Assembly: GCA_963741955.1 (NCBI GenBank)
Contig: CAVUKB010000010.1
Span: 64,001 to 128,000, forward strand
From: an uncultured Acidobacteriota bacterium
GTDB taxonomy: Bacteria; Acidobacteriota; Thermoanaerobaculia; Gp7-AA8
Direction of reading: 5' to 3'
Length of the DNA: 64,000 nucleotides
Position numbers and translations under genes: made by a program. Shown here piece after piece: positions 42,714 to 57,608 of the stretch; position 1 is the first letter of the stretch, and every line of letters begins with the position of its first letter. Below the pieces are notes generated by a model. It saw nothing but the letters and a program-made list of their open reading frames with translations. It ran no database searches and was not told the origin of the DNA.

Positions 42714-42752
42714 TGCTCGTCGCTCGTCGCTCGTCGCTCGTCGCTCGTCGCT
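42714..42752. repeat. Tandem heptamer array CGCTCGT x5
   Basis: tgctcgt (cgctcgt)x4 cgct, abutting the msrA TAG; hairpin CCCGATTTTT/AAAAATCGGG at 42663-42687. Confidence 0.88.
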
Positions 42753-43248
42753 AATCCCTCACATAGTGGCACGTATACCCGTTCGGGTATTTCTGCAGGT
42801 AGTCCTGGTGGTACTCCTCGGCGGGCCAGAATGTCGTGGTCGGCACGATCTCCGTCACGACCGGGCGCCGCCATTTGCCGGACTGATCCACTTCGGACCG
42901 GACGCGCTCCGCCGTCTCCCGCTGAGCTTCGTCATGGTAGAAGATGATCGAGCGGTACTGCGTCCCGATGTCATTTCCCTGGCGGTTCGGGGTGGTCGGG
43001 TCGTGAAGACGGAAGAAGAAGCGGAGGATCTCCTCGTAGCTGATCCTGGACGGATCGAAGACGATCTCGACCGATTCGGCATGGCCGGTGCGGCCGCTCT
43101 TCACGTCCTCGTATCGCGGTTTCTCGAGCGTTCCGCCGGTGTAGCCGACGCTCGTCCGGACCACTCCACCGAGTTTTCGAATCAACTCCTCGACGCCCCA
43201 GAAGCAGCCTCCGGCGAGGGTCGCCGTCTCGAATCCGTTCTCAGGCAT
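42751..43248 (-). CDS. msrA: Peptide-methionine (S)-S-oxide reductase
   Basis: LAGGCFWG, GYTGG, TGHAE, DPT..NRQGNDIGTQYRS, AEEYHQDYL, GYTCH. Confidence 0.96.
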   Translation of the reverse strand: MPENGFETATLAGGCFWGVEELIRKLGGVVRTSVGYTGGTLEKPRYEDVKSGRTGHAESVEIVFDPSRISYEEILRFFFRLHDPTTPNRQGNDIGTQYRSIIFYHDEAQRETAERVRSEVDQSGKWRRPVVTEIVPTTTFWPAEEYHQDYLQKYPNGYTCHYVRD

Positions 43249-43866
43249 TCACTTCGTCTCCTTCTGCGCGTTCTTCCGGAACAGCGGGAGAAACTCGCCG
43301 TAGCCTTCCGCCTGGAGCTTTTCGACCGGGATGAAGCGCAGCGCCGCGGAGTTCATGCAGTAGCGCATGCCGGTCGGCGCGGGTCCGTCGTTGAAGACAT
43401 GGCCGAGGTGTGAACCGGCGTGCTTCGAGCGAACCTCGGTGCGCACCATGAAGAACTGCCGATCGGTCTTCTCCACGATATTGTCCGGCACCAGAGGCCT
43501 GGTGAAGCTCGGCCAGCCCGTTCCCGACTCGAACTTGTCGAGGGAGCTGAAGAGCGGCTCACCGGAGACGACGTCGACGTAGATGCCGGCTTTGTGGTTG
43601 TCCCAGTACTGGTTGCGGAACGCGGGCTCGGTTCCTCCGTTCTGGGTGACGTCGTACTGAAGCGGCGTCAGCTCTTTCTTCAGCTCGGTTTCGGACGGTT
43701 TGGTGTACTGCGACATGGATGCTCCCTTCGTGCTGGCGGTGTGTACGGCGGCGCTCGACGGATGGGCGCTCTGCGGGCCGCGCTGCCGCGCGGCGGCGAC
43801 GAGCGCCAGAGACACGACAGCCAGGATGGCCACGATCGCCGTGGCCCACGTTCTGCTCTGATTCAC
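43249..43866 (-). CDS. msrB: Peptide-methionine (R)-S-oxide reductase, Zn-free type, with signal peptide
   Basis: [51 protein letters not shown]; N-terminal hydrophobic signal; GGAGGAGG RBS. Confidence 0.95.
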
Positions 43867-44051: not shown

Positions 44052-45920
44052 ATGCAGGCATTCCGTCGATTCGTCGTTTCGTTCGTGATCGTCCTGACCG
44101 CAGGTGCGGTGATGGCGGCGCAGACCGCGCCGATCGATCTCACCGTCGACATGAGCGACATCGGCCAGAAGATCACTCATACGCACATGGTCATCCCGGT
44201 GTCTCCCGGACCGCTCGATCTCTATTATCCGAAGTGGATCCCGGGTGAGCACGGACCGACGGGGCCGATCGTGCAGATGGCGGGACTTCACATCACCGCG
44301 GCCGGAAAAGAACTGGCGTGGAAGCGCGATCTCCTCGAGATGTACGAGATCCACACCGTGGTCCCCGCAGGCGTCGACTCGATCAACGTCGATTTCGATT
44401 TTCTCGCTCCCGCGGGCGGATCGTTCACCGCGGGCGCATCGTCCACGCCGAATCTGGCGATCCTGAGCTGGAACAGCGTGGTCCTCTATCCGGCCGGCCA
44501 CGCCTCGGACGAGATCCTCTTCCACCCTTCACTGATCCTTCCCAGGGGATGGGACTACGCAACCGGGATGGAGACGCGCTCGACGAGCGGTGGAACGATC
44601 CACTTCGAGCCGGTCTCCCTCACCACCCTCATCGACTCGCCGGTTCAGAGCGGGACGATGTTGCGGAAGATCGAGATTCCGGACGGCGCGATCCATCACG
44701 AGATCGACCTGGTTTCCGACAGCCGCTGGGCCGAAGAGACGCCGAAGGATTTCGCGCAGCAGTACGGCAGGTTGGTCGCCGAAGCGAAGGCGCTGTTCGG
44801 AGCGCAGCACTACCGGCATTACAACTGGCTGCTGACGCTCAGCCATCATGTTCAGCACTTCGGTCTCGAACATCACGAATCGAGCGATGACCGGGTCGAC
44901 GAGAATCTGCTGGAGAACGAATCGGGCCGGAACCGGATCGCCGGACTTCTCGCTCACGAGTACGTCCATTCGTGGAACGGTAAGTATCGCCCGCCGGCCG
45001 GACTCGCGGTCTCGAACTACGACAAGCCGATGACGGACGAGCTCCTGTGGGTCTATGAGGGATTGACTACGTATCTCGGCAATCTTCTTCCGGCGCGCGC
45101 CGGACTCTGGACTCAGGAGTATTACCGCGAATCAGTGGCCGAGATCGCATCGAGCCTGAGCACGGCAACGGGACGTCAGTGGCGACCTCTGGCCGATACC
45201 GCGGTGGAAGCGCAGATCCTCTACGAATCGCCGCGCTCGTGGGGAACGTACCGCCGCGGCGTCGACTTCTATGACGAAGGTCTCATGGTCTGGCTCGACG
45301 CAGACATGACCATCCGGCGCCTGACCAATGGCCGGAAGTCTCTGGACGACTACCTCCATCTCTTCTACGGCGGCGAGAGCGGACATCCGGCGTTGAAGCC
45401 GTACACGTTCGACGACGTGGTGAATGCGATGAATCAGGTTGTGCCGTACGACTGGAAGAACTTTTTCCTCACGCGGCTGCAGTCGAAGGAGCCGCTGGCG
45501 CCGATGGGGGGCATCACCGGCGGAGGGTGGAAGCTCGTCTACAACGAAGAGCCGAACGCAGCGATCAAGGCGCGCGAGCATGACGGGAACCGGGATCTGA
45601 CCACCTCGATCGGCCTGTACCTCGGGAAGGACGGCCGCATCAGCGACGTGATCCGTTCGAGCGCGGCGTGGAAGGCGGGACTCGCTCCGGGAATGGACGT
45701 GGTGGCGGTGAACGGCCGGAAGTACAAGCCCGAAGTGATCGAGCACGTCGTCCGGGATTCGAAGAGCAGCAGCGCGCCGGTCACGCTTCTGATCGACGAC
45801 GACGGAGTCTTCAGGACGTACACAGTCGACTATCACGGCGGCCTGAGGTATCCGCATCTGGTGCGGGAGGAAGGAAAACCCGACCTCCTCAGCAAGCTTC
45901 TCCAGCCGCTGGCGAAGTAG
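44052..45920 (+). CDS. M61 family metallopeptidase with PDZ domain (second paralog)
   Basis: Signal peptide; YPKWIPGEHGP, LIDSPV, GLEHHESSD, HEYVHSWNGKYR, LWVYEGLTTY, DFYDEG. Confidence 0.9.
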   Translation: MQAFRRFVVSFVIVLTAGAVMAAQTAPIDLTVDMSDIGQKITHTHMVIPVSPGPLDLYYPKWIPGEHGPTGPIVQMAGLHITAAGKELAWKRDLLEMYEIHTVVPAGVDSINVDFDFLAPAGGSFTAGASSTPNLAILSWNSVVLYPAGHASDEILFHPSLILPRGWDYATGMETRSTSGGTIHFEPVSLTTLIDSPVQSGTMLRKIEIPDGAIHHEIDLVSDSRWAEETPKDFAQQYGRLVAEAKALFGAQHYRHYNWLLTLSHHVQHFGLEHHESSDDRVDENLLENESGRNRIAGLLAHEYVHSWNGKYRPPAGLAVSNYDKPMTDELLWVYEGLTTYLGNLLPARAGLWTQEYYRESVAEIASSLSTATGRQWRPLADTAVEAQILYESPRSWGTYRRGVDFYDEGLMVWLDADMTIRRLTNGRKSLDDYLHLFYGGESGHPALKPYTFDDVVNAMNQVVPYDWKNFFLTRLQSKEPLAPMGGITGGGWKLVYNEEPNAAIKAREHDGNRDLTTSIGLYLGKDGRISDVIRSSAAWKAGLAPGMDVVAVNGRKYKPEVIEHVVRDSKSSSAPVTLLIDDDGVFRTYTVDYHGGLRYPHLVREEGKPDLLSKLLQPLAK

Positions 45921-46134: not shown

Positions 46135-47484
46135 TCAGGAGCCGGAGGTTCCCGCGGTCGTCTTCAGATCTTCGAGCCTTTTCTTCAGCGCCGCGATCGT
46201 CCGCTTCGATCGTTGCTCCTCCGGGAGTGCTTCCGCTTCGGCGATCGCCGTTTCGAGCGCGGTACGTGCGCCAGCATCATCGCCGTTGCCGATCAGTGCC
46301 TCGATCTTCGTACGCCAGATGCCGAGGCGTCGAGGCCCGTAGGCGAGAGAGAGCGCACGGCCGGCAGCGGCGATTGCATCGTCATACTTCTTCATCTCGA
46401 GGTAAGTCAGGGCGAGACGCGCCGGCGGGTTGTAGTCGCCCGGGAAATCGCGCTGCGACTCTTCGAGCATCGGGATCGCTCGCTCTGGCTGACCGAGCTC
46501 GAAATACGCGCTGAGCCGGTGCGAGTCGAACACCGTGCGGGCCTCGGGGCTCTTTGCCGTCGCCGCTTCGTGATCCAGGAACGCGGACCACTCCTCGGTG
46601 AGCTCGTGCTTCCCTTCCTCGTCTCCGGCCGCCTCGCGTGCGGCGATCAGCTCCTGATAGAGCCCGGACCGGTCGTCCGCTTCGGGATGAAGCTGCTTGT
46701 CGGCCATTACCGCACGGGCGTCGATCTCGAGTTGCGCGCGCAGCTCGGAGCGGAAGTGATTCGAGTCGGGGAGGTTGATCGCACAATCGAGCCCCGTCGC
46801 GGCGACATTCAGCGCAGAGGATGAGTGGCGCAGACGGCGGAACGCATCACGTGCCGTCGTCGCACACTGGTCGTACTCGCCCGTCCCCTGCAGCGCGAAC
46901 AGAAGCGACTCGGTGACCCGTCCGCGCGGCCTCCACGCTGCCGGAGCGTCCTCGAGCAGCGCGGCATACGCCTTCGCGGCGCCGGCGTTGTCGCCGGATC
47001 CATAGAGGGTGTCGGCCACGGAGAGTTTCTTTGCGAGAAGATCCTGCTTCGGATTCACGGCGCGCAATCCGTCGTCGAGGATCTTCGCCAGCTGCGGCGC
47101 CGTCGCGCCTCCCAGCCAGCGGAGGACGACCTTTTCACTTCGCGGGTCGACCACGTAGAACGTCGGGTAGCCTTCGAGCGCGAACTTCTTCCTCAGCGCC
47201 GCGTTGGACTCTTTTTCACCATCGATCGCGAGCCAGACGAACCGTCCGGCATACCGCTCGAGAGACGCGTCGGTGAAGACGAACGCCTCCATGGAGCGGC
47301 ACGTGTGTCACCAGGGGGCCCAGGCTTCGACGAAGAGTGGAGCGTTCTTCGCCTTCGCCTGGGCCAGTGCCCGTGCGTAGTCATCGTGGATGAAAGGAAG
47401 CAAGTGGCTCTTCGTGGTCGCGCCGAGAGCGGCGGTCGAGAGAAGAGCGCCCACGATTCCCGCGAGGATCAGAGACCGTTTCAT
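46135..47484 (-). CDS. Secreted thioredoxin-domain/TPR protein with in-frame UGA (probable selenocysteine, UxxC)
   Basis: MKRSLILAG signal...FVEAWAPW-TGA(47308-47310)-HTCRSM, continuing in frame into 46135..47292 (EGYPTF cis-Pro loop, TPR helices). Confidence 0.85.
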
Positions 47485-47631
47485 CGAATGAGGTCCTCCA
47501 GCCGTTGGATGCGGCATCCGATGATATCGGAACATCGAGCTCGAGAATTTCCGCGGCTGGTCAGGATGGCGAACTTCAACCCGGAGCGGGCTTGGTGGTG
47601 ATCGGGCGGTATCGGCAGGCCTCGTCGGATC

Positions 47632-48321
47632 CTAATTCGGGTAAGGATCACGAAAGGCGCGGACGGTGCGACCCCAGAAAAAGCTGAGAGCGCCGCCCAG
47701 GAGAAGGATTCCACCGCCGATGGTCGAGAGGGAGATCGCGATGGTCGGAGGGTTATCGAGAAATACCCCATACAGCACGCGGGCGGCTCCGACCAGGAGG
47801 GAAGCACCTGCGAGGACGATTGGAGCCGGATCAAAACGCCGCAGGATCAAAGTCGCGAACGTCTGCGCCGTCGCCAAGGCAGCTGCCAGAACCAGGTCGA
47901 CACCCGCCAACAGAAGCACCTCGCCACCGAAGTAATCGGGGCGGGCGATGATGCGTGATCCGGCAAAGAGGATACTCGTCGCCAAAACCGCCACGACGCA
48001 GGAACCTCCAAAGGACATCCCGACGATCGAGCCGATGTACTCCGCCGCAGAGACCGGGAGGACCGTGGCGCGGGGACGGTCATCGAGCCAGCCGTCGCGA
48101 TTGAGAGACGCTCGTGCCGAAATCGCGGCATAAACCGGAACCAGAACCAGAAATGCCGCTGCCAAAGCAAAGAAGCTTTCGAAGGATCGCGGAGAATACG
48201 GGGTGGGAAAGATGAAAATGCCGAGCAGAATCGTTCCTGTGAATCCGAACAGAAGTCTCTTCGTAAGGAGAAATGTTCGCAAGAGACAAGCAACGAGCGC
48301 GTGGACTCTGACTTCAAACAT
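47632..48321 (-). CDS. Putative ABC transporter permease (about 6 TM)
   Basis: Hydrophobic 229-aa ORF overlapping the ABC ATPase stop. Confidence 0.65.
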   Translation of the reverse strand: MFEVRVHALVACLLRTFLLTKRLLFGFTGTILLGIFIFPTPYSPRSFESFFALAAAFLVLVPVYAAISARASLNRDGWLDDRPRATVLPVSAAEYIGSIVGMSFGGSCVVAVLATSILFAGSRIIARPDYFGGEVLLLAGVDLVLAAALATAQTFATLILRRFDPAPIVLAGASLLVGAARVLYGVFLDNPPTIAISLSTIGGGILLLGGALSFFWGRTVRAFRDPYPN

Positions 48322-48943
48322 GATGAAGAACCTTGGCGGTCGATCCGGTTCGCACCATCGTGTATCGATCCGAATCAGCGGGCCACGTCGTCTGACCGGT
48401 GTCCTGCGTCGCGATGAGGATCAGCGATCGTGTCGATGCCTCGAGAGCGATCCGGGAGAGGGTTTCTGCGCGTGACGAATCGAGGAACGCGAGCGTCTCG
48501 TCCAGGACGACGACCTCGGAACCGGAAGAACATGCGATGACGTGCTCGATCATCCGCTGCTCGCCCGCCGAGCACGTACCAATTCTGCGTTGCCTCGTCA
48601 GCCCGAATCCGTCGATGCTGCTCTCGGCAAATTCAAGGTCGAACGCGGGATAAAGGAGTCTGGCTATTGCAAGAATGTCGCGCACCGTGAGCTCGTCCAG
48701 CCATGGGCGTTCCTGGGACACGTATGCGACTCGACGCCGCATCGCGTCCCGAGGCATTTCGATCGAATCGAGGTATACGTGACCGTCTGCAACTGGTCTC
48801 CGTCCGGTGAGTGCGTCGAGCAGGGTGGTCTTTCCACTTCCGTTCTCTCCGACCAGCAGAGAGATTCGGCCGAGTCGAACGAACATTTCGTCGGCGTAGA
48901 TGGAAAACCCGGTTCTATGGACGATCAGTCCACAAATGGACAA
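48314..48943 (-). CDS. ABC transporter ATP-binding protein (divergent)
   Basis: Walker A GENGSGKTT, Q-loop YVSQE, signature CSAGE, Walker B VVVLDE, H-loop replaced by ATQD; probable TTG start at 48943. Confidence 0.85.
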   Translation of the reverse strand: MSICGLIVHRTGFSIYADEMFVRLGRISLLVGENGSGKTTLLDALTGRRPVADGHVYLDSIEMPRDAMRRRVAYVSQERPWLDELTVRDILAIARLLYPAFDLEFAESSIDGFGLTRQRRIGTCSAGEQRMIEHVIACSSGSEVVVLDETLAFLDSSRAETLSRIALEASTRSLILIATQDTGQTTWPADSDRYTMVRTGSTAKVLHHV

Positions 48944-48966
48944 AGCGCCTCGCGGCTGAGTGTGAT

Positions 48967-48988
48967 GGGCGGGGCCACAGCCCCTCCC
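48967..48988 (-). terminator. GC hairpin after the precursor gene (mRNA-stabilising or attenuating)
   Basis: GGGAGGGGC-TGTG-GCCCCGCCC about 10 nt after the TAA; no U-tract. Confidence 0.5.
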
Positions 48989-48998
48989 AGGACTAGGA

Positions 48999-49574
48999 TT
49001 ACGCACAAGCATACAGGCTGGCCGAGGCGACTTCGAAGCTGGCAACTGCGACGAAAATACTGGCGCCGCCCGTTGCGGGCGTGAGCATGACCAGGCCGGC
49101 GAAAGAGAGCCCCCAGCCGGTCACAGCGAGCGCACAGCCCCAGCTCTCGGCATTGACCGTATCGGCCGAGGTTATCAGCGTATTGCCATCCACGAACTCA
49201 CGAAACGAGCGTGCAAGCGCAACCAGCGACGGATCGGGCGTGGTCGCACGTAGTTCATGTTCCGCAGCAATATGTTCATTCCGGTAACGCCCTTCGAGCC
49301 AAATTCGATCGGACGTTTCTCCTCGAAGGTTCAGTTCGAATGATTCTCCATCCTCTCTCACGAAAGTGATGGATCTTCCCACGCCGCGAAACAGCTGAAG
49401 AGTCTTGCCGGCGACAGTGATCGAACCAAGATATGAAGTCGCGACACCACGCGAACTCTGGCTGGTGATCTCGACTTGATCGGTGGGCACTGGTGTTGCC
49501 GCGATCGCCGGTAGAGCGAGGAGTATGGAGAGTGAGAGTGCGATTGTTCTGTACAACGAGAGGCCCCTTTCCAT
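48999..49574 (-). CDS. Secreted protein with C-terminal hydrophobic bacteriocin-like peptide
   Basis: Sec signal ending ...PAIA; hydrophilic middle; C-terminal SWGCALAVTGWGLSFAGLVMLTPATGGASIFVAVASFEVASASLYACA. Confidence 0.7.
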   Translation of the reverse strand: MERGLSLYRTIALSLSILLALPAIAATPVPTDQVEITSQSSRGVATSYLGSITVAGKTLQLFRGVGRSITFVREDGESFELNLRGETSDRIWLEGRYRNEHIAAEHELRATTPDPSLVALARSFREFVDGNTLITSADTVNAESWGCALAVTGWGLSFAGLVMLTPATGGASIFVAVASFEVASASLYACA

Positions 49575-51668: not shown

Positions 51669-52223
51669 GTGGCCTCGAAGCTTCCGTCTTTCCCCGGTTC
51701 CAGGGATCTGGCGCACCTCGACAAGGTGGCGGCCGATGCGTGTTTCCAGTGCAACCGCTGCACGGCCGGATGCCCTCTTTTCGCCGCGATGGATCTCTCC
51801 CCCGCGCAGATGGTCCATCATCTCCTTCTCGGCGAGTGGGAGCCGGTGGTCGAGTCGGATGCGATCTGGGCCTGCGTCCATTGTGAAACGTGCACGGCGC
51901 GTTGCCCGCAGCAGGTCGACGTCTCCGGGCTCCTCCACGCGGCCCGCGTCGCGGCATGGCAGGCCGGAAGGCTTCCCCGCGACAAGACCATCGCCACGTA
52001 CTTCGCCTCTTTCGTGGAGAACCTCTACCTGTACGGTCGCTCGGCCGAGCTCCCGCTGACCCTGATCTGGAAGCTCAAGTCCGAGGACTATCTGCGGGAC
52101 ATGCTGCTCGGGATCCGGCTCCTTTCCCGAGGAAAGCTCGCTCTGTTCGGTCTGCCGAAGGGAGGCGCGACCTACCGCCGTCTCTACGATCGGGTGAAGC
52201 AGAAGGAGGCAGCCGGATCATGA
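51669..52223 (+). CDS. hdrC: Heterodisulfide reductase subunit C-like
   Basis: CFQCNRCTAGCP and CVHCETCTARCP (2x 4Fe-4S). Confidence 0.9.
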   Translation: MASKLPSFPGSRDLAHLDKVAADACFQCNRCTAGCPLFAAMDLSPAQMVHHLLLGEWEPVVESDAIWACVHCETCTARCPQQVDVSGLLHAARVAAWQAGRLPRDKTIATYFASFVENLYLYGRSAELPLTLIWKLKSEDYLRDMLLGIRLLSRGKLALFGLPKGGATYRRLYDRVKQKEAAGS

Positions 52224-53098
52224 AACGCTACGCCTACTATCCCGGCTGCTCACTCGAGAAGATGACCAGCGAGTACGACGTTTCGTTCCGGAACGTCTGC
52301 GACGTTCTCGGCATCGAGCTGGAAGAGCCGCGCGACTGGTTCTGCTGCGGCGCGGGCATGGTCGGCAACGTCTCGCCGCTCCTCGGGCTCGCGGTCCCGT
52401 TGAAGAATCTCGTCCTGGCCCGCGAGACGGGACTGGGGGAGTTCGTTTCCCCCTGCTCGGCCTGTTACAACCAGTTCAAGCGCGCTCAGCACGAGATTTC
52501 TGAAGACCTGACCCTTCGCGCCGATCTCGAGGAGATCGTGGAGGCGCCCCTCGAGCATCAGCCCGAAGTTCTCCATCCCCTGGAGATGCTGCTGCGCGAG
52601 GTGAACGGCTCGAAGCCCCGAATCGAGCGATCCGCACCGGAGCTTCGTGTCGCCTGCTACTACGGATGTCTCCTCACCCGGCCGCCGAAGATCGTGACGT
52701 TCGACGATTGCGAGGATCCGCGGTCGATGGACCGGCTGCTGCAGCGGTTCGGCATCCAGACCATCGACTGGTCACAGAAGACGCGCTGCTGCGGCGCGTT
52801 CTACGCCATGGTGAATCCCGATCGCGTCCTCGAGCTCACCCGCGAGATTCTGCAGGGGGCTCTGGAGGCGGGGGCGAACGCCATCGCCGTCGCCTGCCCG
52901 GTCTGTCATCTGAATCTCGATTCGCGACAGCCGGAGGTGAACGACCGGTTCGGCACGACTTACGGCATCCCGGTTTTCTACTTTTCTCAGCTTCTCGGCT
53001 TCGCCCTCGGTGTCCCGACCGAAGGACTCGGCCTCTGGAGACATGTCGTCGATCCACAACCCCTCCTGAGCCCGAAAGCGGCCGTCGTCGCTGGTTGA
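52220..53098 (+). CDS. hdrB: Heterodisulfide reductase subunit B-like
   Basis: MKRYAYYPGCS, WFCCG, PCSAC, YYGCLLTRP, RCCG, ACPVCHLNLD (two CCG domains). Confidence 0.93.
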   Translation: MKRYAYYPGCSLEKMTSEYDVSFRNVCDVLGIELEEPRDWFCCGAGMVGNVSPLLGLAVPLKNLVLARETGLGEFVSPCSACYNQFKRAQHEISEDLTLRADLEEIVEAPLEHQPEVLHPLEMLLREVNGSKPRIERSAPELRVACYYGCLLTRPPKIVTFDDCEDPRSMDRLLQRFGIQTIDWSQKTRCCGAFYAMVNPDRVLELTREILQGALEAGANAIAVACPVCHLNLDSRQPEVNDRFGTTYGIPVFYFSQLLGFALGVPTEGLGLWRHVVDPQPLLSPKAAVVAG

Positions 53099-53105
53099 GG
53101 CGCGT

Positions 53106-56100
53106 ATGAGTCAGACGAAGACAATCGGATCCGTTCTCGTGGTTGGAGGAGGCGTCGCAGGGATGCAGGCGGCTCTCGATCTGGCCGACTCGGGGTACAA
53201 GGTCTATCTGGCCGATCGCGAGAGCAGTATCGGCGGAACGATGGCGCAGCTCGACAAGACGTTCCCGTCGAACGACTGCGCGATGTGCATCCTCGCTCCG
53301 CGCCTGGTCTCGGCGGGACGTCACCTCAACATCGAGATTCTCCCGAGCACCGAGGTGCTGGGGGTGGAGGGAGAGGCGGGGAGATTCCGAGCGACGCTGC
53401 ACCGGCGCGGGATCTACATCGACGCATCGAAGTGCACCGGATGCGGCGAGTGCAGCCAGGTCTGCCCGGTCGATCTTCCGAACGAATTCAACTTCGGTCT
53501 CGGAACCCGCAAAGCGATCTCGCGCCGGTATCCGCAGGCGGTTCCGGCGAATTACACCATCACCAAACGTGAGCGGCCACCCTGCCAGACCGCGTGCGCC
53601 GCGGGAACGAACGTCCAGGGATACATCGCTCTCACTGCTCAGGGAAAATTCAAGGAAGCGCTCGACGTCGTACGCGAGCGGATGCCGTTCGCGTCGGTCT
53701 GCGGGCGCATCTGCCTTCACCGCTGCGAGAACGAATGCAACCGGAATCTGGTCGACGAGCCCGTCGCCATCATGCAGGTCAAGCGGTTTCTCGCCGACTG
53801 GGATTACGAGCAGGGGAATCCTCTTCCGCCTCCGGTTCCGAAGACCAGGACGGCGCGGATCGCGGTGATCGGCGGCGGACCTGCGGGGCTGGCGTGTGCG
53901 CACGACCTCGCGAAGGACGGATATCCGGTGACCCTGTTCGAATCGAGCGACGAGCTCGGCGGAATGCTCCGCTCGTGCATTCCGGAGTTCCGGCTTCCCG
54001 AAGCTCACCTCGAGCGCGACATCGAATTCCTTCTCTCGCCCGGCGTGGACGTGGTGCTGCGGAAATCCCTCGGGAGAGACTTCACCATCGAAGATCTCGA
54101 GAAGGAAGGATACCGAGCGGTCTTTCTCGCCACCGGGGCGTACAAGCCGAAGAAGCTTCCGATTCCCGGACACGATCTCGAGGGGATCAGCCTGAACATC
54201 GAGTTCCTCGAAGCGGTCCGCGCCGGTGAGCACGTCGATCCTGGCCGGCGGGTCCTGGTGATCGGCGGCGGTAACGTGGCGATCGACGTCGCACGTTCAG
54301 TACGACGACTCGGCGTCTCCAGCGTGACCATGGCCTGTCTCGAGAGCCGCGAGGCCATGCCCGCGCATTCGTGGGAAGTTCAGCAGGCGCTCGACGAAGG
54401 GATCGAGATTCTCAACGACGTCACCCTCAAGCGTTTCGTGGGCGAGAGAGGACACGTTCGTGGCGTCGAAGCGCGGCGTATCCGCGATCTGTCGTTCGAC
54501 GCGGAGGGGCGGATTCACCTCACCGAGGTTTCGGAGAGCGATTTCGCGATCGACGCGGACCGGATCATCGTGGCGATCGGGCAGACTCCTGAGCTGAGCT
54601 ATCTCGACTCGAGGAGCGGGGCGGTGCAGGTGAGCCGTCGCGGGCTGATCGAAGTCGATCCGGACACGCTCGCCACCAGACGTCCGGGAGTCTTCGCGGG
54701 TGGTGACGTGGTCGCCGAGCAGCCGGGGATCCGGATCTTCGCGGGTGGCGACGTGGTGACCGGAACGGCGTTCGTGGTCGACGCGGTCGCAGCCGGGCAT
54801 CGCGCCGCCGAGTCGATCGACCGCTACGTGGAAGGTCTTCCGTTCGCGGGGCCGAGACCGAAACCGAAGCCGTACAAGCTCACCCCCGAGGCCGTGGAAA
54901 AGAAGCTCCATGACGGCGAGATCCGGAAGAGCGTCCGGGCGATCGCGCCCGAAGCCGCTCCGGCAGCACGGGTCGCGAGCTTCGACGAGATTCAGGAAGG
55001 GTTCACCGAGGCGATGGCGGTCGCGGAAGCGAAACGCTGCCTTTCGTGCGGCCTCTGTTCGGAATGCCTCCAGTGCGTCGAGGTCTGTCAGGCGCATGCG
55101 ATCCGGCACGACTTTCCCCGCGACGAATACCGGACCATCGACGTCGGCGCGGTCATCCTCGCTCCGGGTCTCTCGGCGTTCGACCCGACCGAGAAGGGAG
55201 AGTACGGCTACAACCGCTATCCCAACGTCGTCACCAGCGTCGAATTCGAGCGCATCCTCAGCCCTTCCGGTCCTTTCGGCGGAAAGGTGCAACGTCCCTC
55301 GGATGGAAAGGCACCGAAGAAGATCGCATTCATCCAGTGCGTCGGATCACGCGAAGTCGGCCGCGACTACTGCTCGTCGGTCTGCTGCATGTACACCGCG
55401 AAACAGGCGGTGATCGCGAAGGAACATCAGCCGGGACTGGAGACCACGGTCTTTTACATCGATCTCCGTGCGGTGGCGAAGGGGTTCGAAGCGTACATCG
55501 ACCGGGCGAAGAGCGAAGGAGTGAGGTACGTCCGGTGCCGTCCGTCTGCGGTGACACACCTCCCGCAGAGTGGAGATCTGGTCGTCGAGTATGCAGACGA
55601 AGAAGGGCAGCATCGCGAGATGTTCGACATGGTCGTTCTCGCAGTCGCGCTCACTTCGTCGCCCGATCGGAGACAGCTCGCGCAGGCCGCGGGTATCCCG
55701 GTCAATGAGTATGGATTCGCGAGATCGATCGCCTTCGACCCGGAATCGACCAGCCGTTCCGGCGTCTTCGTCTGCGGGCCGTTCGTCGATCCGATGGACA
55801 TCCCGGAAACGGTGGCTGGCGCGAGCGCGGCGGCGGCGAAGGCGATGGCGCTCCTCGCCGACAGCCGGGGAACGCTGGTCCGGCCGAAGACCTATCCGCC
55901 GGAGAAGGATGTGACAGGGGAAGAGCCGCGCGCCGGTGTCTTCGTGTGCCACTGCGGGACGAACATCGCCGGCGTCGTCGACGTCGAAAAAGTGGTCGAC
56001 TATGCGAAGACTCTCCCGGGAGTGGTCCATGCGGAGCGTAACCTCTACACCTGTTCGGACGACACGCAGAAGCGGATCCGGGAAAAGATCGACGAGCTGA

Positions 56101-57608
56101 ATCTGAATCGGATCGTGGTCGCCTCCTGCACGCCGCGAACGCACGAAGCACTTTTCCGCGACACCATCCGCGAAGCGGGTCTGAACGAGTACTACTTCGA
56201 ATTGGCGAACATTCGCGACCAATGCTCCTGGGTCCACAAGAACCGGAAGGAGCAGGCGACGGAAAAGGCGAAGGATCTGGTGCGGATGGCTCTGGCCAAG
56301 GTGCGTCTCGACGAGCCGCTCCACAAGCGGCCTCTCGCCGTCACCCAGGCCGCGCTGGTCCTCGGCGGCGGAGTGAGCGGCCTCTCCGCCGCGCTCTCGC
56401 TCGCTGATCAGGGCTTTCAGGTTTTTCTGGTCGAGAAGGAACGGGACCTCGGCGGATATGCGAAAGAGCGTCGTTACCCGCTGACCGGCGAGGACACCCG
56501 GATGCGCCTGTGGGAGATGATGGCCCGGGCGCGCACGCATCCGAACATCCAGCTCATGCTGGGATCGACTCTCCAGAAGGTGGATGGCTCGCTCGGCAAC
56601 TTCAAGTCGACCATCGCTACGGATGGCTTCGAGCGCGAGATCGCACATGGCGTGGTGATCGTCGCGACCGGCGCAGAACGGTACGTGCCGAATCAGTACC
56701 TGTTCGGCGAAGATCCACGAGTGGTCCGCCTCTTCGAATTCGAAGAGATGATGGCCGACCACAAGGTCGACACCGATTCGGTGGTGTTCATCCAGTGTGT
56801 CGGTTCGCGGAACGAAGAGCATCCATGGTGCAGCCGCACCTGCTGCATGGAGTCGGTGAAGAACGCTCTGCGCGTGAAGCAGCAGAACCCCGGTGCCGAA
56901 GTCTCAGTGCTCTATCGCGACATCCGCACGTACGGGTACCGCGAGCTCTACTACCGGCAGGCGCGCGAGCGCGGAGTGCGATTCATTCGATTCGACGAAG
57001 CGCATCCGCCGCGGGTGGTCGCGGAGAACGGATCGCTTCGAGTGACGGTGCTGGATCAGATGACACGCCGTGAAGTGGACCTCGATGCGAAGGCGGTCGT
57101 TCTCGCGGCGGCGACGCTTCCGAATCGCGGTAACAAGGACATCGGTCAGATTCTGAAGGTCCCGCTGAGTGAGGACGGATTCTTTCTCGAGGCGCACCGG
57201 AAACTCCGCCCGGTCGATTTCGCGACGGACGGCATCTTTCTCTGCGGCGCCGCGCATTCGCCGGTGGGTTTGCGTGAGGCGGTCTCGCAGGCCGCCGCAA
57301 CCGCGTCGCGAGCGGCGACGATCCTCTCGAAGAGCGTGATCGACCTCGAGCCGACGATCTCTCAGGTGGTGAAAGAACGATGCGACGGTTGTGCGTACTG
57401 CGTCGATCCCTGCCCCTTCCACGCCATCACGCTGGTCGAGTACAGCGAGAACGGCGATACGAAGAAGCGCGTGGAAGTGGACGAAGCGGTCTGCAAGGGG
57501 TGTGGAACATGCGAGGCGACCTGTCCGAAGGGAGCGATCTTCGTGTGGCATTTCCGCCCCGAGCAATTGATGGCACAGGTCCACGCCGCACTCGATATCG
57601 CGGGGTGA
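53106..57608 (+). CDS. hdrA: HdrA-like flavoprotein with inserted GltD/NfnB-like NAD(P)H module (HdrL type)
   Basis: GGGVAG, LDKTFPSNDCAMC, FIQCVGSR..CSSVCC; inserted GRICLHRCE, GGGPAG and GGGNVAID; second HdrA module (GVFVCHCGTNIAG, GGGVSG, CSRTCC); C-terminal 2x 4Fe-4S. Confidence 0.92.
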   Translation: MSQTKTIGSVLVVGGGVAGMQAALDLADSGYKVYLADRESSIGGTMAQLDKTFPSNDCAMCILAPRLVSAGRHLNIEILPSTEVLGVEGEAGRFRATLHRRGIYIDASKCTGCGECSQVCPVDLPNEFNFGLGTRKAISRRYPQAVPANYTITKRERPPCQTACAAGTNVQGYIALTAQGKFKEALDVVRERMPFASVCGRICLHRCENECNRNLVDEPVAIMQVKRFLADWDYEQGNPLPPPVPKTRTARIAVIGGGPAGLACAHDLAKDGYPVTLFESSDELGGMLRSCIPEFRLPEAHLERDIEFLLSPGVDVVLRKSLGRDFTIEDLEKEGYRAVFLATGAYKPKKLPIPGHDLEGISLNIEFLEAVRAGEHVDPGRRVLVIGGGNVAIDVARSVRRLGVSSVTMACLESREAMPAHSWEVQQALDEGIEILNDVTLKRFVGERGHVRGVEARRIRDLSFDAEGRIHLTEVSESDFAIDADRIIVAIGQTPELSYLDSRSGAVQVSRRGLIEVDPDTLATRRPGVFAGGDVVAEQPGIRIFAGGDVVTGTAFVVDAVAAGHRAAESIDRYVEGLPFAGPRPKPKPYKLTPEAVEKKLHDGEIRKSVRAIAPEAAPAARVASFDEIQEGFTEAMAVAEAKRCLSCGLCSECLQCVEVCQAHAIRHDFPRDEYRTIDVGAVILAPGLSAFDPTEKGEYGYNRYPNVVTSVEFERILSPSGPFGGKVQRPSDGKAPKKIAFIQCVGSREVGRDYCSSVCCMYTAKQAVIAKEHQPGLETTVFYIDLRAVAKGFEAYIDRAKSEGVRYVRCRPSAVTHLPQSGDLVVEYADEEGQHREMFDMVVLAVALTSSPDRRQLAQAAGIPVNEYGFARSIAFDPESTSRSGVFVCGPFVDPMDIPETVAGASAAAAKAMALLADSRGTLVRPKTYPPEKDVTGEEPRAGVFVCHCGTNIAGVVDVEKVVDYAKTLPGVVHAERNLYTCSDDTQKRIREKIDELNLNRIVVASCTPRTHEALFRDTIREAGLNEYYFELANIRDQCSWVHKNRKEQATEKAKDLVRMALAKVRLDEPLHKRPLAVTQAALVLGGGVSGLSAALSLADQGFQVFLVEKERDLGGYAKERRYPLTGEDTRMRLWEMMARARTHPNIQLMLGSTLQKVDGSLGNFKSTIATDGFEREIAHGVVIVATGAERYVPNQYLFGEDPRVVRLFEFEEMMADHKVDTDSVVFIQCVGSRNEEHPWCSRTCCMESVKNALRVKQQNPGAEVSVLYRDIRTYGYRELYYRQARERGVRFIRFDEAHPPRVVAENGSLRVTVLDQMTRREVDLDAKAVVLAAATLPNRGNKDIGQILKVPLSEDGFFLEAHRKLRPVDFATDGIFLCGAAHSPVGLREAVSQAAATASRAATILSKSVIDLEPTISQVVKERCDGCAYCVDPCPFHAITLVEYSENGDTKKRVEVDEAVCKGCGTCEATCPKGAIFVWHFRPEQLMAQVHAALDIAG

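Follow-up and report, generated by a model that had tools for sequence, protein, structure and literature searches.

The window, by which we mean the whole 64,000-nucleotide stretch of DNA analysed here, carries on its minus strand a gene at 47484-46135 that the list of open reading frames divides in two (47308..47535 and 46135..47292). Both pieces lie in one frame and are separated solely by the TGA at 47310-47308. An earlier note on this DNA had joined them into a single gene on the strength of the codons translated as EAWAPW*HTCRSM, and it was correct both in the join and in every codon quoted. Read through from the ATG at 47484, the TGA becomes residue U59, the first position of a CxxC-type motif, W-U-H-T-C, and homologues of 430-470 aa span 90-98% of the resulting protein. 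A search for sigma-70 promoters at the gene gave no match, terminator matches there did not rise above shuffled sequence, and Rfam returned no match up to E=1. Public contigs of run X1 span the UGA codon without any difference; they probably derive from the source sample and hence are not independent. The features of the gene are collected in Table 1.

Table 1. Features of the 47484-46135 gene and of its transcript, with the further probable selenoprotein genes of the genome (window positions unless a contig is named; RNA positions count the U of the UGA as +1).
Feature	Position	Strand	Remarks
Full coding sequence	46135..47484	-	449 aa with TGA read as Sec; terminal TGA 46137-46135
Shine-Dalgarno-like GGAGG	47495..47499	-	10 nt before ATG 47484; from sequence
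In-frame UGA, predicted Sec59	47308..47310	-	opens the U-H-T-C motif (47310-47299)
Predicted cleavable signal peptide, about aa 1-20	47425..47484	-	hydropathy heuristic; low pLDDT
Thioredoxin-fold domain, aa 28-145	47050..47403	-	nearest Thioredoxin_7 / DsbD-gamma / 2kuc / 2lst type
Pro107, expected cis-proline of YPTF	47164..47166	-	invariant in 78/78 aligned; aromatic or aliphatic residue before it
TPR-like superhelix, 15 helices, aa 149-446	46147..47040	-	aa 263-400 strongly conserved
Hairpin A	47252..47301	-	+10..+59; long irregular stem, loop without G; proposed spacer; contains stem-loop 47289-47262
Hairpin B	47232..47250	-	+61..+79; GGUUC loop (47243-47239) on a stem of 7 bp; proposed SelB-binding SECIS, 64 nt after UGA
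Alternative near hairpin	47274..47291	-	loop GUUC, spacing 23, -6.4 kcal/mol; competes with A; not conserved
Other probable selenoprotein genes, ten in number: PDO, two rhodaneses, FdhA, OsmC-like, NHL-Trx, ArsC/Spx-like, Prx, SelD, PrdB/GrdB-like	C5:578319+, C5:101589+, C5:527280+, C7:49082+, C5:950815-, C4:233696+, C1:496292+, C5:561704-, C7:622998+, C7:147896+		codon-model scan

As the earlier note expected, automated annotation has missed this gene. A database record holds a 385-aa fragment of it, and 24 of the best 120 database matches (43 of the best 150 representatives) likewise begin at the Met behind the UGA, an AUG six codons on that gene callers use as the start. The databases systematically mis-annotate and truncate the family by placing the start after the UGA.

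The same strand carries, upstream (47632-49574), an ORF of 191 aa that matches nothing in Pfam and has a leader and a C-terminal tail that is hydrophobic and bounded by Cys, together with genes for an ABC ATPase and a membrane protein. We take these to resemble a small-peptide or bacteriocin-type export unit, which was not seen as a conserved neighbour of the homologues. Downstream, an M61 aminopeptidase gene (44052-45920, plus strand) is convergent with the gene, and 2.3 kb away stand adjacent genes for an MsrB-like protein with a leader and an MsrA-like protein (42751-43866, minus strand), presumably a redox-repair unit; this pair was not conserved beside homologues. Further off (51669-57608, plus strand) are what we take to be HdrC/HdrB-like genes followed by one for a 1500-aa HdrA-like flavoprotein. 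Neighbourhood clustering over 91 homologous loci found no universal partner and none that names a client; the commonest same-strand upstream gene, directly upstream at about 15 of those loci and not in the window, is presumably an S9-type peptidase. Among the homologues themselves, the match is split in two, between profile positions 151 and 192, in G508 and G622, which belong to one genus, and G015 carries a tandem pair of copies, both with a TGA within the matched region.

The architecture that the earlier note read from the joined product, a signal peptide, a thioredoxin domain with its YPTF loop and a long TPR region, is borne out by Pfam, by a hydropathy heuristic and by an alignment of 78 proteins. 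By this simple heuristic the N-terminus consists of MKR and a run of hydrophobic residues, whose best Kyte-Doolittle mean over 9 residues is 2.6, and no membrane helix follows; a hydrophobic leader recurs in 94 of 96 full-length homologues, with one lipobox and no Tat motif among them. Over about aa 33-136 the domain scores above cut-off for PF13899 (51.5 against 27), PF00085 (33.8 against 23.5) and PF13098 (30.3 against 27), TPR_19 and TPR_14 also exceed their Pfam cut-offs, and the active-site motif W-U/C-H-T/S-C is present in all 78 aligned proteins. An AF2 model built on the 78-row alignment (pLDDT 93.8, pTM 0.89) gives a thioredoxin fold at aa 28-145 and then 15 helices. The thioredoxin domain is best matched by 2kuc (E 1e-17) and DsbD (8e-11) and superimposes on thioredoxin 2lst (Z 16.1, rmsd 2.9 over 127), while the helical part fits LGN (Z 17.9, rmsd 5.0 over 291); an LGN-like, peptide-binding TPR superhelix is a common fold, and the fold alone shows no function. 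Among solved structures none stood out for the whole chain, and an ESM Atlas query with the Cys homologue P0003 brought up only unnamed Trx/TPR clusters. The profile for DsbH disulfide reductase (NF043050) was rejected, with a score of 16.6 against a cut-off of 190.

Positions conserved at 90% or more number 41 of 138 in aa 263-400, compared with 33 of 118 in the thioredoxin domain, and those of aa 263-400 are largely polar. Conservation so rich in D, R, S, H, N and Y suggests a specific partner, and the TPR region may be a client-binding arm. A second Cys pair in the helical part (aa 207 and 234, window about 46866 and 46785) occurs in 42 and 66 of the 78 aligned proteins respectively and is possibly a structural disulfide. 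One homologue, P0228, is fused behind a DsbA-like domain, which is a single hint at disulfide handling; among nine long or odd homologues it was the only one with a fusion that pointed to a client. The genome encodes DsbD, and profile queries of it for DsbB (PF02600) and TPR_20 (PF14561) found neither.

The genome (5.4 Mb, 99.1% complete) contains selA, selB, selD, the last with its own in-frame TGA, and the tRNA-Sec gene selC, all above cut-off. In 61 genomes of relatives there were 32 with a strong match (E < 1e-50), and the best 30 loci, read at codon 59, have TGA in 28 cases and TGC in 2, a count that includes the unpublished genome G042, on which no conclusion rests. Named genomes, scanned with an active-site seed that is biased to Cys, yielded 46 loci, 42 of them with Cys and 4 with TGA; the records were mostly of Acidobacteriota, among them many Thermoanaerobaculia, and included some Eisenbacteria and Myxococcota. 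Searching metagenomes with a pattern that requires TGA yielded at least 120 loci, 118 of which align to the protein, a figure that speaks for breadth and not for frequency. Wherever the aligned codon could be read it is TGA, TGC or TGT, so that the loci without TGA always encode Cys. The selA gene is present in 28 of 28 tested genomes of relatives and in all 4 scanned genomes with a TGA copy (one match being partial), and it is kept by 35 of the 42 genomes with a Cys copy; the switch between Sec and Cys is consequently gene-specific, and Sec is dispensable for this family.

Of 157 representatives, 48 were too short and were omitted; on the tree of the remaining 109 full-length rows, 76 with Sec and 33 with Cys, the Sec/Cys label changes 15 times, at least 12 of them on well-supported branches. 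Most Cys groups nest within Sec groups when the tree is rooted at its midpoint, the only root applied. Subject to that root, the nesting tentatively suggests repeated loss of Sec to Cys, but a Myxococcota draw gave 26 Cys to 1 Sec. The UGA at 47310-47308 almost certainly encodes selenocysteine at the active site of a predicted exported redox protein, as the earlier note had proposed for the nucleophilic Cys of the thioredoxin motif. The grounds it gave on which that proposal might fall have all turned out in its favour: the Sec machinery is there, TGA is widespread, with Cys elsewhere, and is not peculiar to one strain, and the contigs of run X1, with the reservation made above, show no conflict at the codon.

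A codon-model scan of the same genome for read-through genes, which is crude and gives a lower bound, returned 11 plausible genes. Besides the present one there are ten further probable selenoprotein genes whose flanks match redox families, namely FdhA, SelD, PDO, two rhodaneses, an OsmC-like protein, NHL-Trx, an ArsC/Spx-like protein, Prx and a PrdB/GrdB-like protein; an extra list of motifs for further read-through genes yielded nothing more that could be supported. The genome probably encodes at least 11 selenoproteins. All ten of the others have a G-loop hairpin at a spacing of 17-29 nt after the UGA. As a selenoprotein PDO occurs in only 2 of the 61 relatives and is too rare for a SECIS comparison.

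To compare TGA and Cys genes at the RNA level we used 194 loci with an aligned site, 189 of them with 120 clean bases, which dereplication at 93% reduced to 119 TGA and 38 Cys genes. Their strongest sequence differences fall at +63..+75, within hairpin B. All seven pairs of this hairpin are intact in 118 of the 119 TGA genes and in 3 of the 38 Cys genes; the lone TGA gene that fails is shifted by a 1-nt insertion, and a further parse, which catches it, gives 119 of 119. Random synonymous recoding of the same proteins leaves the hairpin in 8%. Across 12 independent Sec/Cys pairs on the tree, hairpin B tracks Sec in 10, runs opposite in none and does not differ in 2 (p=0.002), and in a later draw, used as a held-out test, it was intact in 8 of 8 new TGA genes and in 0 of 26 Cys genes (one of the 26 had been seen before, and three loci had no readable site). 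The loop has the consensus G/A-G-U-U-C/U, and the hairpin as a whole combines a loop of 3-5 nt with G in the first two places, a stem of 7-8 bp and an energy of -10.6 to -11.8 kcal/mol. Its loop is identical to the conserved peroxiredoxin SECIS loop of the same lineage at +20 (20 of 20 parsed loci, 25 fetched) and resembles that of SelD (25 of 25). The distance from the UGA to the loop is 64 nt here and 63-66 in all 119 TGA genes. A 2005 paper reportedly found a SECIS in the 3'-UTR to be functional in E. coli. Covariation in the stem is slight because the hairpin is so invariant: two-sided changes occur only at 66-74 (6/117) and 68-72 (21/117), and 68-72 is mismatched in 22/117. Two Cys alleles, L024 and L043, retain an intact hairpin B beside Sec sisters on the tree and are probable recent switches from Sec to Cys with a SECIS remnant.

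Between the UGA and hairpin B lies hairpin A, which is irregular, with 78% of cells paired and shifts of register. Over +10..+60 the TGA genes fold 9.8 kcal/mol better than synonymous controls and the Cys genes 0.1 kcal/mol worse, and a control stretch at +82..+120 shows no folding excess. Six or more of the expected pairs are found in 92% of TGA genes against 11% of Cys genes, and closure of the hairpin tracks Sec in about 8 of the 12 tree pairs, with 0.2 against. The innermost three pairs are alike in TGA and Cys genes (about 92-95% of cells paired), and being equally kept in the latter they are imposed by the protein sequence, whereas the remainder is specific to TGA genes (78% of cells paired, against 42-57% in Cys genes). 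Pairs 24-48 (GC 60, CG 30) and 27-45 (CG 53, GC 15, UG 15, UA 4) covary and rank first and third of 960 variable pairs. Two-sided changes in A total 92 against 35.9 in shuffles (0/500), compared with 25 against 23 in the Cys control (152/500). The count of pairs that covary does not exceed that in shuffles (106/500); tested along the tree, pair 27-45 is weakly supported (p about 0.03) and pair 24-48 falls short of significance (3/0/4, p 0.25).

It was within this structure that the earlier note had sought the SECIS, in a stem-loop at 47289-47262. Part of that description stands, since the stem-loop belongs to the minimum-energy fold, starts 18 nt after the UGA, has a loop without G (the family consensus loop likewise) and is associated with TGA; it is, however, only the upper half of hairpin A and not the whole element. 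Its identification as a SECIS is not supported, given the missing G, the innermost pairs kept equally in Cys genes and the position of the TGA-specific G-loop hairpin at 47250-47232. This stem-loop is probably not the SelB site.

In proposing how the UGA is recoded we need to account for a conserved hairpin that lies at an unusual distance. Hairpin B is very likely the SelB site. The accessible part of PMC4605307 describes a structural model in which the SECIS loop is about 57 Å, or 13 nt, from the A site; 64 extended nucleotides would reach much further, so that B, if it is the site, must be folded back to some extent. With A closed at 13-56 or 10-59, 42-48 nt are removed and the effective distance from the UGA to the B loop is 16-22 nt, matching the SECIS spacing of FdhA, Prx and SelD in the same organism, and the closure of A reaches exactly to the foot of B. 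The lower stem of A needs +13 onward to be free, and in the 47484-46135 gene it does not form if the ribosome keeps 15 nt or more unpaired. We consider it fairly likely that hairpin A acts as a spacer. The comparison of genes shows the UGA in place of the attacking Cys of a CxxC thioredoxin site. In the mechanism we propose, with the UGA in the A site, hairpin A would pair about +13..+27 with +45..+59, and its closure, by removing those 42-48 nt, would place the B loop at the effective 16-22 nt, where SelB would bind GGUUC. Taken as a whole, a genuine selenoprotein gene with a two-part SECIS is the best explanation, and one in which we have good, if not complete, confidence.

As for the protein, in Dsb systems DsbD maintains in reduced form an exported CxxC or UxxC protein that serves as reductase or isomerase, and Sec at the attacking position makes that residue more nucleophilic. 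We therefore lean, by a modest margin of belief, towards a DsbD-fed, client-selective disulfide reductase or isomerase of the cell envelope. Its UHTC site would be kept reduced by the DsbD of this genome, and its conserved TPR groove would hold particular envelope proteins while their disulfides are reduced or reshuffled.

Other readings of both codon and protein can be weighed on the same evidence. The TGA might be a true stop, in a pseudogene, through an assembly error or between two genes, of which the second would start at the downstream ATG and make a TPR protein of the cytoplasm; or it might be read as Trp. Gene callers do list the 385-aa product and the downstream Met is conserved, but it is equally conserved in the Cys forms (77/78), the residue aligned with the codon is always Cys, and the TGA occupies this one codon in more than 100 distinct sequences, in which both flanks are preserved and, where the locus is complete, some 375-395 codons stay open after it. 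As for Trp, the gene itself terminates in TGA and the tRNA-Trp of the genome has the anticodon CCA. We hold either version to be extremely improbable. A more serious competitor concerns function: the product could be a periplasmic chaperedoxin, a general holdase whose TPR part binds unfolded proteins while their thiols are protected or reduced, like the cytoplasmic CnoX. The order of domains is that of CnoX, and Foldseek places the YbbN/CnoX structures 3qou and 3qdn among its top matches (E 3e-5), but CnoX fits poorly over the whole chain (rmsd about 24, TM 0.21), the TPR part has 15 helices, and its conserved residues, being largely polar, would favour a specific ligand over the hydrophobic surface that a holdase presents. 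Moreover, hand-over to GroEL or DnaK is unavailable outside the cytoplasm. A general holdase of this kind seems to us unlikely, if by no means far-fetched, and the client-selective enzyme is the reading we retain.

The RNA likewise admits other arrangements. Hairpin B could be the SelB site with A no ruler at all, B being flexibly tethered and A serving to slow the ribosome or to hide the AUG six codons past the UGA. Such a role would sit well with a structure that is associated with TGA yet loosely conserved and that overlaps the downstream ATG used by gene callers, and the WHD2/WHD3 hinge of SelB is described, in the accessible part of PMC4605307, as tolerating differences in length. It would leave aside the closure of A right up to the foot of B, with its resulting path of 16-22 nt, and the tracking of Sec by closure noted above; we consider it unlikely. 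Alternatively, SelB might bind near the UGA, at the 47289-47262 stem-loop or at the near GUUC hairpin, leaving some other role to B. The former lies in the minimum-energy fold and is enriched in TGA genes as part of A; the latter has a spacing of 23 and forms on a transcript ending at +40..+45, before +50 is transcribed. Yet the one loop has no G, the other hairpin has a pairing probability below 0.01 in the full fold, and near G-loop hairpins occur in just 11 of the 119 TGA genes, a rate close to that in Cys genes (2 of 38). Nor does a site near the UGA offer any explanation for the loss of B at each loss of Sec. This arrangement is improbable, and the reading with hairpin B as the SelB site and hairpin A as its spacer is the one we carry forward.

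The non-canonical, two-part SECIS proposed here is well supported by the comparison of aligned genes. That it represents a second class of bacterial SECIS, in which an ordinary SelB hairpin about 65 nt from the UGA is combined with a sequence-independent spacer stem that restores the distance, seems to us somewhat more probable than the contrary. If true, such a SECIS would sit where the protein sequence tolerates it, and it would account for some of those bacterial selenoprotein genes, roughly 13%, that have no canonical element; in BSepDB 87.4% of entries have a canonical SECIS and the remainder are called uncharacterised, according to the accessible part of PMC13326102. Searches for SECIS elements would be widened, and protein engineers could insert Sec without rewriting the residues beside an active site. 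With more than 100 Sec alleles and some dozen independent switches between Sec and Cys, the family provides a model, testable by mutation, for one class of non-canonical SECIS. A widespread and mis-annotated Trx-TPR subfamily is a useful addition but an expected one, and the recoding signal matters more.

Both parts of this proposal have relatives among known systems. Bacterial UxxC selenoproteins of the thioredoxin fold share the UGA at the first Cys, the Cys homologues and the Sec machinery, and Table 1 of PMC13188914 lists Trx (PF00085), a thiol:disulfide interchange protein (PF13098) and thiol-disulfide isomerase-like selenoproteins, the first two being families whose cut-offs our product passes. 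It differs from them by its signal peptide and its TPR superhelix of 300 aa, and no TPR-containing family is among the 119 selenoprotein families of that table. The NCBIfam seleno models TsoB, Trx7/PDZ and VPGUxxT score 18-31 against cut-offs of 275-805, and a term search of the accessible parts of PMC13326102 and PMC12013277 met no mention of TPR. No Trx-TPR selenoprotein or spacer-bridged bacterial SECIS was found in the literature covered, outside which lie most subscription papers, supplements and the BSepDB tables; single members may stand in BSepDB or in supplements under a generic Trx label. CnoX/YbbN (3qou, 3qdn; PMC6282202) shares an N-terminal thioredoxin fold and a C-terminal TPR domain. 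As the accessible part of that paper describes it, CnoX is a cytoplasmic holdase with a WCG/XPC (WCGPC) or SXXC motif and hand-over to GroEL/DnaK, whereas the present product has WUHTC, is predicted to be exported and has a longer TPR part; it has no TPR_20 match, and identity with CnoX was rejected on export, motif and whole-chain fit. The best matches of the thioredoxin domain in both sequence and fold are exported thioredoxin-fold reductases of the DsbD-gamma / DsbH / 2kuc / 2lst type, which are single domains or parts of DsbD and have Cys. The predicted Trx-TPR protein is a new, uncatalogued but unsurprising subfamily of the known UxxC selenoproteins.

The RNA element departs further from precedent. 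With the canonical bacterial SECIS of the E. coli fdhF type (PMC13188914, Fig. 2A) hairpin B shares the N1-G-U-N-N2 loop pattern, the stem and the energy. The bacterial SECIS model given in the accessible part of that paper has an apical loop of 3-9 nt, with G in its first two positions, a stem of 4-16 bp, an energy of -7.5 kcal/mol or lower and a spacing of 16-37 nt, the last being the rule that reviews state for bacteria. In loop, stem and energy hairpin B falls within these limits; at 64 nt it lies outside the spacing, and between it and the UGA lies a second TGA-specific stem. The novelty of this locus is the proposed two-part SECIS, in which a hairpin of ordinary form would be brought to an ordinary distance by the stem that precedes it.
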